From the IMG/VR virus record IMGVR_UViG_2802429219_000008: 21,425 bases of DNA. One strand, written 5' to 3'. This stretch comes from a virus (taxonomy: Duplodnaviria > Heunggongvirae > Uroviricota > Caudoviricetes). A model generated the notes under the pieces. The model had not been told where the DNA came from, did not search any database, and saw only the letters and a list, made by a program, of their open reading frames with translations. Positions 3,694 to 5,863 of this stretch are shown here, piece after piece; positions within the stretch are counted from its first letter, which is position 1, and each line of letters opens with the position of its first letter. Made by a program: the position numbers and the translations under genes.

Positions 3694-3885
3694 TTAAAGA
3701 CCTGCCGGGATTTTGATATTATCCTGGTGAATAACTTTATCGACCGGGTAACAGTTACCGGGAATTTTCTGTTCGGTTGCTGCAGTCATACACTCCTGCA
3801 TTGTCCTGTGAACACTGACTGCAATATTAACTGGCACTCCGGAAACAAGAAAAACTGTCAGAACAAGCGCAAATGCTGAATTCAT
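3694..3885 (-). CDS. ydfD: YdfD-like small lysis/membrane protein (63 aa)
   Basis: Internal ATG of ORF 3694..3939(-) gives MNSAFALVLTVFLVSGVPVNIAVSVHRTMQECMTAATEQKIPGNCYPVDKVIHQDNIKIPAGL. Its ATG (3883-3885) overlaps the dicB stop (3882-3884) in an ATGA junction, implying translational coupling. Confidence 0.7.
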   Translation of the reverse strand: MNSAFALVLTVFLVSGVPVNIAVSVHRTMQECMTAATEQKIPGNCYPVDKVIHQDNIKIPAGL

Positions 3886-4070
3886 TGTGCACATCCTTTT
3901 GGCATCAGACGTAAACGAGCCAGCATTGAAACAATGCATATTTTATTTAATAGCTCCCGTTCTTGTTTTCTCTTGTTAATGGCATCTTCAGTAAATACAG
4001 GGTTACTGATAGTGACACCAATTTCAAAACAACCTTCAGACGTATTAACGTTTGGTAATAACGTTTTCAT
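3882..4070 (-). CDS. dicB: cell-division inhibitor DicB (62 aa)
   Basis: Internal ATG (4068-4070) of ORF 3882..4175(-) gives MKTLLPNVNTSEGCFEIGVTISNPVFTEDAINKRKQERELLNKICIVSMLARLRLMPKGCAQ, matching DicB as I recall it. GAGGA Shine-Dalgarno 9 nt upstream. Confidence 0.85.
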   Translation of the reverse strand: MKTLLPNVNTSEGCFEIGVTISNPVFTEDAINKRKQERELLNKICIVSMLARLRLMPKGCAQ

Positions 4071-4240
4071 TATCGCGTCCTCAACAATGAATTTTGTGAT
4101 GCAGTGCCTGGTGCCTCCAGGTGACGTTAACCAGTTAACAATTAACGTCGGATACAGAGAATCCACCCATAACACTGTTTTTGGTTTTAACTGTTCCGCG
4201 TGCGCTTAGCCGCATTCACCGCATCACAAAATTCACTTTA

Positions 4241-4297
4241 AAAACGGCGGCAGAGCAGTCACGGAGTAAAACTGATACCGCCAAACGTCACCAGAAA
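4241..4297 (-). ncRNA. dicF: DicF small regulatory RNA (ftsZ-targeting sRNA) with intrinsic terminator
   Basis: Minus strand reads TTTCTGGTGACGTTTGGCGGTATCAGTTTTACTCCGTGACTGCTCTGCCGCC followed by GTTTTTAAA: the DicF sequence as I recall it, ending in a GC-rich hairpin (GGCGG...CCGCC) plus U-run. Located between the ydfABC-like genes and dicB as in Qin. Confidence 0.75.
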
Positions 4298-4556
4298 ATT
4301 GATAACAGAGGGCGTTGCAGCGGGGTTGTCACTTAAGCGTATGGTCAACCTGACAACTCGGTGTCCTCAACGGGGAAGGAATAACCCCGCCATACTTACC
4401 GCCGCGCCATTTTGCGGGTTGCCACAACCGGAAGCGCACGGTCGAATTAAATTTAACGACACCGTACAGTGAGACGAACTTCGCCGTGCGCTTTCGTGTT
4501 GTGTGCCTGCTTTTAACCACGTCAGGCGAGGTGGTATCCTTAAAATCACCACAGTT

Positions 4557-5132
4557 TTAAGGATTCATTAAGCAATGTCGCAACCACCAATAAATCCGCT
4601 TAAGAACATGAAAATTGATTACTGGTATAAAGCGCTTACAGTTGTTGGCGCTGCGTTGTTTGTCTTTAATGGAACGTCTTTTTTTGACAGATATCCCGTT
4701 GTTCCATTGGGTTTTTTGTCCTCCGGCATCTTTTTTATTGGTTTGGGGGAGTGGATTAATCACCCTCTCAAAGTGAGATTTATTGGTCCTGGAGTTTGGA
4801 CTCGTGGATATAATCGTTCTTCGTGCGCACTCGGTATCATCTTCGACATACTTGGTTGTTTCCTGATTGTTACAGGAGTCGTCAAGTTCTTCTGATGTAA
4901 AACCGCAAATGGGGCACGTAACGGGAATTTTGAAAAGCGTTTCTCCGGGTTCCAGAACAAAATTTTCTGCGGTCTGATTTTGCTTCTCATATTTGTGCTC
5001 CGCGTCATTGTGAGAGCACATTCTTATTCTGAGTGCCTGTTTAAACTCACTGAAGCTGAGAGCTTCTTCGCCTTCGGCAAGGCCTTCGAAGTATTCTTCG
5101 TAAGCCTTTTCCATGATTGTGTCGAAATCCAT
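4557..5132 (-). CDS. ydfB/ydfC-like protein (start 1 nt after ydfA stop); C-terminal extent uncertain
   Basis: Internal ATG (5130-5132) of ORF 4557..5174(-). The first ~85 residues (MDFDTIMEKAYEEYFEGLAEGEEALSFSEFKQAL...CPICGF...) are acidic and protein-like. The last ~110 residues are K/N/R-rich low complexity and exactly antisense to + ORF 4575..4895, so the true stop may differ. Confidence 0.4.
   Translation of the reverse strand: MDFDTIMEKAYEEYFEGLAEGEEALSFSEFKQALRIRMCSHNDAEHKYEKQNQTAENFVLEPGETLFKIPVTCPICGFTSEELDDSCNNQETTKYVEDDTECARRTIISTSPNSRTNKSHFERVINPLPQTNKKDAGGQKTQWNNGISVKKRRSIKDKQRSANNCKRFIPVINFHVLKRIYWWLRHCLMNP
4575..4895 (+). CDS. candidate 3-helix small membrane protein (106 aa), antisense to the ydfB/C-like ORF; alternative to the tail of 4557..5132
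   Basis: ORF track 4575..4895(+). AAGGA 11 nt upstream of ATG. Three ~19-residue hydrophobic segments separated by Pro/Gly/charged loops. Mutually exclusive with the C-terminal half of the minus ORF. Confidence 0.3.
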   Translation: MSQPPINPLKNMKIDYWYKALTVVGAALFVFNGTSFFDRYPVVPLGFLSSGIFFIGLGEWINHPLKVRFIGPGVWTRGYNRSSCALGIIFDILGCFLIVTGVVKFF

Positions 5133-5133
5133 A

Positions 5134-5289
5134 TCACTCACCTGAGTTTCTTTCCAGCCAGCGACGGGCACCATTTTCGGTTTTAAACGTTTTGCTTTTG
5201 GTATACGTCATCGCGGTGAACGTGCCGTCCTGGTTGGGGAACACGCCACATACCAGAGATTCGCTGTTGCCAAGATCGATAGTATCCAT
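5134..5289 (-). CDS. ydfA: YdfA-like protein (51 aa, DUF1391-type)
   Basis: Internal ATG (5287-5289) of ORF 5134..5367(-) gives MDTIDLGNSESLVCGVFPNQDGTFTAMTYTKSKTFKTENGARRWLERNSGE. GAGG Shine-Dalgarno upstream. First gene downstream of dicA on the same strand. Confidence 0.8.
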   Translation of the reverse strand: MDTIDLGNSESLVCGVFPNQDGTFTAMTYTKSKTFKTENGARRWLERNSGE

Positions 5290-5455: not shown

Positions 5456-5863
5456 TTATCTTTTATTTGTCCGCTGACGGGCTTTTAGTAATTCTTCAAA
5501 GAGTTTATTGAAGTTTTTTACTCGAGCTCGCATTTCGGCGAGCTGGGTATCCTGTTCTGATTCTGGCAGTGCATTAAACAGCTCAAGGAGCTCTAGTTCT
5601 TTGGGAGATAAGGCAACTGGCTTCTCAACAGGTGGTGTTGGTTGCTTGTCTTCATCGCCAAATAGAATCCATGTTGGTGAGCATTGCAATACTTTGCTGA
5701 GGGCAAAAAGGTTCTTCCCTGTAGGTTCACTATCATCCCGTTCCCATTGTGATACAGACACATGGGAGATTTTCAGGGCTTTAGCAAGAGACCTTTGGGT
5801 GTGTTTGAGGTTTTTCCGACGATACCTAATGCGTTCGCCGATAGTTAAATTTTTTGTATCCAT
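5456..5863 (-). CDS. dicA: repressor DicA (cI/c2-like HTH_XRE repressor, 135 aa)
   Basis: ORF track 5456..5863(-): MDTKNLTIGERIRYRRKNLKHTQRSLAKALKISHVSVSQWERDDSEPTGKNLFALSKVLQCSPTWILFGDEDKQ..., recognised as DicA. Divergent from the cro-like dicC. Confidence 0.9.
   Translation of the reverse strand: MDTKNLTIGERIRYRRKNLKHTQRSLAKALKISHVSVSQWERDDSEPTGKNLFALSKVLQCSPTWILFGDEDKQPTPPVEKPVALSPKELELLELFNALPESEQDTQLAEMRARVKNFNKLFEELLKARQRTNKR

Follow-up and report, generated by a model that had tools for sequence, protein, structure and literature searches.

Can two open reading frames (ORFs) that occupy the same DNA on opposite strands both be genes of a prophage? The question is raised by the virus record IMGVR_UViG_2802429219_000008, a stretch of 21,425 nucleotides (nt) which is called the window in the following and which constitutes the immunity region of a lambdoid prophage of Escherichia coli similar to Qin and Rac. 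A minus-strand ORF of 205 amino acids (aa; 4557..5174) and a + strand ORF of 106 aa (4575..4895) are both present in the ORF listing, with the sequences given in an initial annotation. The + and minus codon starts are equal modulo 3, as was already noted there: the frames are codon-aligned and have codon position 2 in common. All of the + gene (321/321 nt) lies inside the minus ORF, which makes this an extensive opposite-strand overlap. The initial annotation assumed that one of the two frames has to be a shadow. That premise fails, because the N-terminal part of the minus ORF appears to be protein-coding under purifying selection while the + ORF is real as well. We lean slightly towards the reading that both strands are maintained genes, i.e. 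a membrane moron which is expressed in the lysogen and lies antisense in an early operon, and an ORF of that operon which must be translated across it.

The membrane-protein gene on the + strand

The three hydrophobic segments noted earlier in the product of the + gene (4575..4895) are present, and its AlphaFold2 model (predicted local distance difference test, pLDDT, 83.6) consists of three helices (residues 17-32, 42-62 and 85-105) with a beta hairpin at 65-79. The C-terminus, ...TGVVKFF, directly follows helix 3. A database search revealed 60 relatives, most of them full length (100-111 aa) and 34-58% identical, from Yersinia, Herminiimonas, Reinekea and metagenomes. Scans of genomes and viruses placed further members in Pantoea, Roseateles, Burkholderia phage Bcep176 and phage mEp390 and across many phyla; leaving mEp390 aside, the homologues named here have 100-110 aa and 35-58% identity. 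When 1.84 billion cluster representatives were searched with a profile, 486 members emerged at E<=1e-3. The family is recognized by the motifs DYWYKA (from D15) and GLGEWINHPL (from G56); invariant in the alignment are Y16-W-Y-K-A, G56, G58-E-W, N62-H-P, G87 and G94.

Substitutions among related prophage copies follow the + frame. Its omega, taken as dNN/dSN with an overlapping-gene estimator, is 0.07, and amino-acid identity is 0.90 in the + frame versus 0.58 in the minus frame. For one pair of relative loci (L134-L135; L numbers denote such loci throughout) the differences at + codon positions 1/2/3 are 6/7/44. Among 83 near-identical E. coli copies the single nucleotide polymorphisms (SNPs) in the overlap divide evenly in the + frame, with 12 synonymous against 12 non-synonymous changes. 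These numbers bear directly on the proposal that the minus ORF is the sole real gene and the membrane ORF its shadow. Gene callers and the PHROGs do favor the minus ORF: phrog_35040 was built on it, and its protein cluster P0062 has 1798 members, compared with about 140 for each + cluster. The proposal is nevertheless hardly credible, since the substitutions fall on + third codon positions, identity is far higher in the + frame, and + homologues occur in many phyla in which 3-17 stops interrupt the minus frame. On this comparative evidence the + gene is real and represents an undescribed family under strong purifying selection, and the earlier suggestion of a genuine membrane-protein gene is borne out by homologues, motifs and omega. 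Because unpaired family members are widespread, the + gene is also judged to be the ancestral partner of the pair.

The family is not easily linked to a function. The + protein has no match in Pfam, PHROG, NCBIfam or PADLOC, and together with two distant homologues it hit 0 families of the PADLOC and PHROG models, i.e. no known defence or exclusion family. A fold search of the model against BFVD and PDB returned nothing at E<=0.001, the best hits being generic small helical membrane subunits, and no sequence relatives were found in PDB. The genomic context of the distant unpaired homologues is heterogeneous and gives no clue to function. A divergent subfamily without DYWYKA is found in Desulfobulbales (L027-L032), where the conserved context is chromosomal, beside a gene like that of a NiFe-hydrogenase large subunit and a gene for an 84-aa CPSCG protein. 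The latter was considered as a counterpart of the minus partner and rejected, as it is a separate, unrelated gene beside hydrogenase genes. One Arcobacter genome contains three identical copies of the family at three chromosomal sites (L015, L016, L017), which suggests a repeated mobile element.

In each of the enterobacterial loci examined, a gene for a cI/DicA-type repressor is found within about 0.3-0.6 kb of the + gene. Membrane proteins encoded by morons of prophage immunity regions and excluding other phages are known as RexB of lambda, SieB of P22 and Imm of T4. Like these, the + protein is small, polytopic and predicted to reside in the inner membrane, and its gene neighbours that of a temperate-phage repressor, placed and oriented so that expression in the lysogen is possible. 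Unlike them, it has no sequence, profile or fold similarity to these proteins, and its gene is antisense and nested in an early-operon ORF. A role in exclusion or defence is the likeliest guess, drawn from the location only. With three helices in about 100 aa the model resembles a class I holin; this class was rejected, as the protein has no charged hydrophilic C-terminal tail and no PHROG holin match, and its gene lies in the immunity region rather than beside an endolysin gene. A hydrophobic membrane-protein gene opposed by antisense transcription is also the layout of type I toxin-antitoxin loci, for which hok/sok and tisB/istR are well known examples. The + protein, however, has 106 aa and three helices instead of fewer than 60 aa and one helix, its antisense partner is an ORF of 191-205 aa, and the only Rfam RNA is DicF further downstream; this assignment was therefore rejected, too.

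Signals for expression of the + gene can be read from the DNA in front of it. The AAGGA pointed out earlier, 11 nt ahead of the + ATG (4575), is present at 4559..4563 (+) as a Shine-Dalgarno-like sequence, and relatives carry an AGGA-type motif at -12 to -17. A promoter-like element of about 47 nt (4494..4540, +) comprises a -35 sequence TTAACC (4513-4518), a 16-bp spacer and an extended -10 sequence TGgTATCCT (4532-4540), which can be read as sigma-70 type; an inverted repeat GCCTG/CAGGC flanks the -35 on both sides. According to the alignments the element is conserved above the level of coding sequence in all loci of the pL type described below, and its invariant positions are the canonical T, A and T...T of the -10 hexamer. 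In a prophage of the B strain the same element, identical up to TATCCTT, stands at the same distance before a different + strand gene. This supports, but does not prove, a promoter that fires against the operon. No Rfam family was found for the element, and in loci of the cro-cII class no CII-type TTGC-N6-TTGC repeats were found upstream of the + gene. The element also occurs in L036, L034, L138, L159, L161 and L256 and carries CCAC/GTGG, which might form a pseudoknot if the element functions as RNA; seen from the minus strand, DicF or tRNA genes lie downstream of it.

The minus ORF and its stop-free tail

Three parts make up the minus ORF: an N-terminus like that of YdfB, a small domain which is conserved, and a long tail which runs antisense to the + gene. 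It was said to start 1 nt after ydfA. This holds for the ATG at 5130-5132 (MDFDTIM...), which is preceded by the Shine-Dalgarno sequence AGGTGAG, but not for the start at 5174, which overlaps ydfA by 41 nt. From the former start, which the Prokaryotic Genome Annotation Pipeline (PGAP) uses in one record, the product of this early-operon ORF has 191 aa (4557..5132, minus), from the latter 205 aa. The first 34 codons (5031..5132, minus) are homologous to ydfB: phrog_2061 matches residues 1-34, and PGAP labels the region 'ydfB, missing C-terminus'. YdfB of the Qin dicBF operon in K-12 is a protein of 42 aa, to which residues 1-34 from the ATG at 5132 correspond in the same position after ydfA. 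Unlike YdfB, the minus ORF takes another course beyond about residue 34, where a recombination joint lies near 5032, and extends by a further 157 residues. The similarity covers residues 1-34 only and not the full length of the 42-aa protein, and an assignment as YdfB was therefore rejected.

Next to the + gene follows the conserved domain ENFVLEPGETLFKIPVTCPICGFT with a single zinc-knuckle-like CPxCG (4896..4967, minus), which abuts the + stop codon. Across lineages the conserved part spans the first 30-45 non-overlapping residues, with the CPxCG knuckle or with GW in other lineages, before an overprinted extension of 90-120 residues begins. Three variants were seen: the type of the window, PGExhxxIPxxCPxCGF; PLYDKCPxCGC in a second group of lineages; and PGSVxIDxxxxxVxLxGW in the mEp390 type. 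Proline is preserved by four different codons and isoleucine by three. In 17 pairs the differences at codon positions 1/2/3 amount to 84/75/189, and 124 synonymous codon differences face 118 amino-acid differences. The SNPs in 4896-5132 are 6 synonymous and 4 non-synonymous in the minus frame (83 E. coli copies). Judged by these patterns, the N-terminal domain is protein-coding under purifying selection.

Homology searches, which had been proposed for both products, met with uneven success. The + family was found without any named model, and the minus ORF matched among Pfam, PHROGs, NCBIfam and PADLOC only phrog_35040, to which it corresponds, and phrog_2061, neither with an assigned function. 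The minus protein from Roseateles (P0070) bears the UniRef name of an FmdB-type zinc ribbon, and the first knuckle, h-x-h-x-C-P-x-C-G-(F/H/C), is indeed alike. The assignment was not retained, as there is one CPxCG only and no second CxxC, and the Pfam E-values (>=0.0096) are far below the gathering cut-offs in significance; unlike FmdB, the minus lineages of the mEp390 type have GW in place of CG.

Beyond the domain the picture changes. The stop-free tail of 112 aa (4557..4895, minus) runs antisense to precisely the + gene plus 18 nt of its 5' leader. Comparison of synonymous sites over the homologues, suggested earlier as one check, answered only in part: the + frame is conserved, the minus frame is conserved outside the overlap in its N-terminal domain, and the tail is free. 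In the window the tail (residues 94-205) is polar with a net charge of +9 over 112 residues, and across lineages the net charge lies between -2 and +15, for which reason an N-like arginine-rich antiterminator was rejected. Omega of the minus frame in the tail is 0.62 by dNN/dNS and 1.15 by dSN/dSS, and the overlap SNPs in this frame comprise 4 synonymous changes and 20 non-synonymous ones, two of the latter being nonsense singletons, among the 83 E. coli copies. The AlphaFold2 model of the minus protein has an overall pLDDT of 46.7, with residues 45-129 below 50. By these measures no constraint acts on the sequence of the tail, for which disorder is predicted.

What is conserved in the tail seems to be its openness. 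As the frames are codon-aligned, TTA, CTA and TCA are the only codons of the + gene that produce an antisense stop. Leucine and serine (TCN) codons were counted in 14 mutually diverged prophage lineages retrieved via the + protein. The three stop-complement codons make up 6/223 of them, compared with 210/826 for other A-ending codons (Fisher p=1.6e-17), and with 348/1041 in neighbouring ORFs from these loci (p=7e-27, or 7e-24 with the lineage of the window excluded). In unpaired distant homologues their usage is normal (80/277 vs 252/827, p=0.65). All six exceptions fall within + codons 5-17. For conserved residues compared between deep lineages, codon identity equals the expectation for independent draws; the synonymous sites are saturated, and the lineages therefore count as independent samples. 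In all minus ORFs listed, 85% or more of the + gene is covered. Of these 22 ORFs, 13 end 18-39 nt past the + start codon and four 12-48 nt inside the + gene; a read-through variant (L177) ends 312 nt past the + start codon. The alternative considered earlier, a minus gene that ends near 4900, is at odds with a frame kept stop-free across the + gene in many diverged lineages, even though the tail residues vary. The counts indicate that the minus frame is kept stop-free by selection across the + gene in many lambdoid prophages.

A plain shadow would demand less: only the + gene would matter, and the long minus ORF would be a by-product of a codon-aligned frame which is naturally poor in stops. 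The free and predictedly disordered tail agrees with that, as do nonsense and broken copies of the minus ORF, and relatives of higher guanine-cytosine (GC) content (46-57% GC; L004, L013, L024) also have open antisense frames. At 40-48% GC, however, stop-complement codons account for 33% of the leucine and serine (TCN) codons in the neighbours and 2.7% in the + genes, and 3-12 antisense stops are present in unpaired homologues whose GC is similar. The chance of an open antisense frame across the + gene is about 0.01 under the codon usage of the genes neighbouring it in the window and 0.04-0.1 under E. coli genome usage, yet the frame is open in at least 10 saturated lineages. With the coding signal of the minus N-terminal domain added, we regard this explanation as quite improbable.

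The main rival is true dual coding, in which the full-length minus protein with knuckle, disordered linker and C-terminal helix would be functional, truncation would destroy that function, and the protein might for example counteract or partner the membrane protein. The stop-avoidance data apply equally to this case, the N-terminal domain is conserved, and disordered regions often tolerate sequence change. In the AlphaFold2 model, residues 135-150 are moreover predicted to form a C-terminal helix, whose two ten-residue blocks reach pLDDT 65-74. Lying antisense to the DYWYKA region, the helix is conserved automatically, since the + N-terminus is; in L138, L159, L161 and L162 it is lost via stops at + codons 5-17. 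Some E. coli variants have no stop after the + gene at all and run into the next gene as fusion ORFs of 245-272 aa (L177 1189-2007; P0064, P0067, P0068). Together with a tail omega near 1, the wide range of charge and the low overall pLDDT, such variants make a functional tail unlikely in our view.

The pair in its operon and in relatives

The initial annotation placed the + ORF antisense within the operon repressed by DicA, and this location is confirmed: it is nested in a DicA-type early operon between ydfA/ydfB' and DicF. The gene of the DicA-like repressor lies at 5456-5863 (minus). In the same operon ydfA (DUF1391; 5134..5289, minus, stop at 5134-5136) is the 5' neighbour of the minus ORF, and the small RNA (sRNA) DicF (4245..4296, minus; Rfam RF00039, 72.5 bits) lies 3' of it. 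Further genes are dicB (3882-4070, minus), ydfD (3694-3885, minus) and an exonuclease gene on the minus strand, while a Cro/DicC-like gene and ydaT are found on the + strand of the window. Between DicF and dicB a weak match to Rfam STnc100 (4038-4247, minus) stays below threshold, with 33.5 bits against a gathering score of 47.

In the relatives, too, the minus ORF is always co-oriented with the early operon and the + gene always antisense to it. Two layouts can be distinguished. In the pL type the minus ORF follows the repressor gene on the same strand (the window, L036-39, Yersinia L033-35, L138, L166). In the pR type it lies downstream of cro, and in mEp390 (gp38-gp39-gp40) and L141-L145 also directly upstream of a cII-like gene; where the cII-like gene was seen, the minus stop precedes its start by 16-29 nt. 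L139 and L140 contain the cro-then-minus-ORF part of this order. On the minus strand, tRNA genes (Gly-CCC or Asn-GTT) are found directly 3' of the pair in L036 (4802-4875), L037 (3952-4033), L038 (3482-3563) and L159/L161 (1276-1349), and L040 (4257-4721) has the sRNAs DicF, isrK and C4 where the window has DicF.

Among 5426 complete E. coli genomes, 793 contain the region 4450-5250 at >=80% coverage, and only the ydfA/ydfB part (5032-5250) is common to 3973 genomes. Because these share only 5032-5250, the right-hand joint of the cassette is placed near 5032. The slot that corresponds to 4541-5130 of the window holds another cassette in the B strain and in other Qin-like prophages (L256 1777-2311, L003 1624-2158). 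There, a + strand gene for 66 aa (WP_000159335.1) stands directly behind the same conserved element and is convergent with a minus gene for 121 aa, with an overlap of 32 nt. The slot thus appears to be a hot spot for genes antisense to the operon.

Annotation of the pair is uneven. In a RefSeq record 100% identical to the window either nothing or only a 'ydfB pseudogene' is annotated, and the + gene is absent. Another RefSeq record annotates the 191-aa minus ORF, phage HannyBb the 205-aa version, and gp39 of mEp390 is the minus ORF; of the + family only gp33 of Bcep176 is annotated. The papers on dicBF cover ydfA/B/C, DicF and DicB without this cassette (PMC5069750, PMC10448788), and svsR at the 3' end of cI is unrelated to the locus (PMC12803456). 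No description of the gene pair or of the + family was found in the libraries and papers searched, where papers on E. coli antisense overlapping genes were not checked for this locus.

A proposed reading: two genes on one segment

The pair combines two known kinds, prophage morons and antisense overlapping genes. For the latter, E. coli O157:H7 offers the closest comparison, with ano (PMC5960689) and three further genes (PMC9927249), which reportedly likewise have a long antisense overlap and two seemingly coding strands. As far as described there, those embedded ORFs are young, poorly conserved and demonstrated by expression data (PMC5960689, PMC9927249). Here the embedded + gene is ancient and conserved, the tail of the embedding ORF is the young overprint, and the evidence is comparative, i.e. 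stop avoidance.

If both strands are maintained genes, the parts could work together as follows. The + gene has its own promoter-like element and ribosome-binding site and lies antisense beside the immunity repressor; since the early operon is shut by that repressor, we expect its product to be made in the lysogen. Upon derepression, convergent early transcription would shut the + gene down, a moron-like behaviour. The minus ORF would be an early-operon gene with a conserved small domain and an overprinted tail, in which only the open frame is selected. Ribosomes would have to translate the whole segment complementary to the + mRNA, so that the early transcript stays processive and intact. Translation might avoid Rho polarity, which is most plausible just before cII; ribosomes might help RNA polymerase past head-on traffic; or they might prevent a duplex with the + mRNA and hence cleavage of the early transcript by RNase III. 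These candidate mechanisms belong to the general background on Rho polarity, transcription-translation coupling and RNase III.

Several observations weigh against this reading. Broken minus ORFs exist beside an intact + gene, namely in L041 and L033 (upstream breaks) and in the two nonsense singletons among the 83 E. coli copies. A stringent promoter scan made no call for a + promoter. In Bcep176 the + family member (gp33; L124 2384-2848) is antisense to all its neighbours in an 850-nt gap with 6 antisense stops and without a spanning ORF, which is a natural unpaired version of the layout. Translation through the segment alone leaves the conservation of the N-terminal domain unexplained, and any function of the + protein is a guess from its location. 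Finally, an operon of the dicBF type has a long untranslated stretch with DicF after the minus ORF anyway (PMC5069750), which weakens a pure anti-polarity argument for this class.

A wider claim, which we hold tentatively and at slightly less than even, is that the pair is a widespread lambdoid module, in which an ancient membrane gene nested codon for codon antisense in an early ORF has been forced off the antisense-stop codons while an antisense polypeptide of 90-120 residues drifts. The data would in any case be unusually strong comparative evidence for selection maintaining a long antisense frame in bacteria and phages, a contested topic, because they come from independent, saturated lineages. 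They point to a pair in the immunity region that is linked to lysogeny and lysis, with a candidate membrane factor expressed in the lysogen and an early-operon ORF that reads through it. In an active phage, for example mEp390, a small number of synonymous changes would make the pair accessible to testing. If the interpretation is true, it would provide a clean and genetically tractable natural example for the debate on long antisense overlapping genes in bacteria, and a need for ribosomes to accompany the early transcript over an insert transcribed in antisense would add a new rule on how phages can accommodate antisense morons in their operons.

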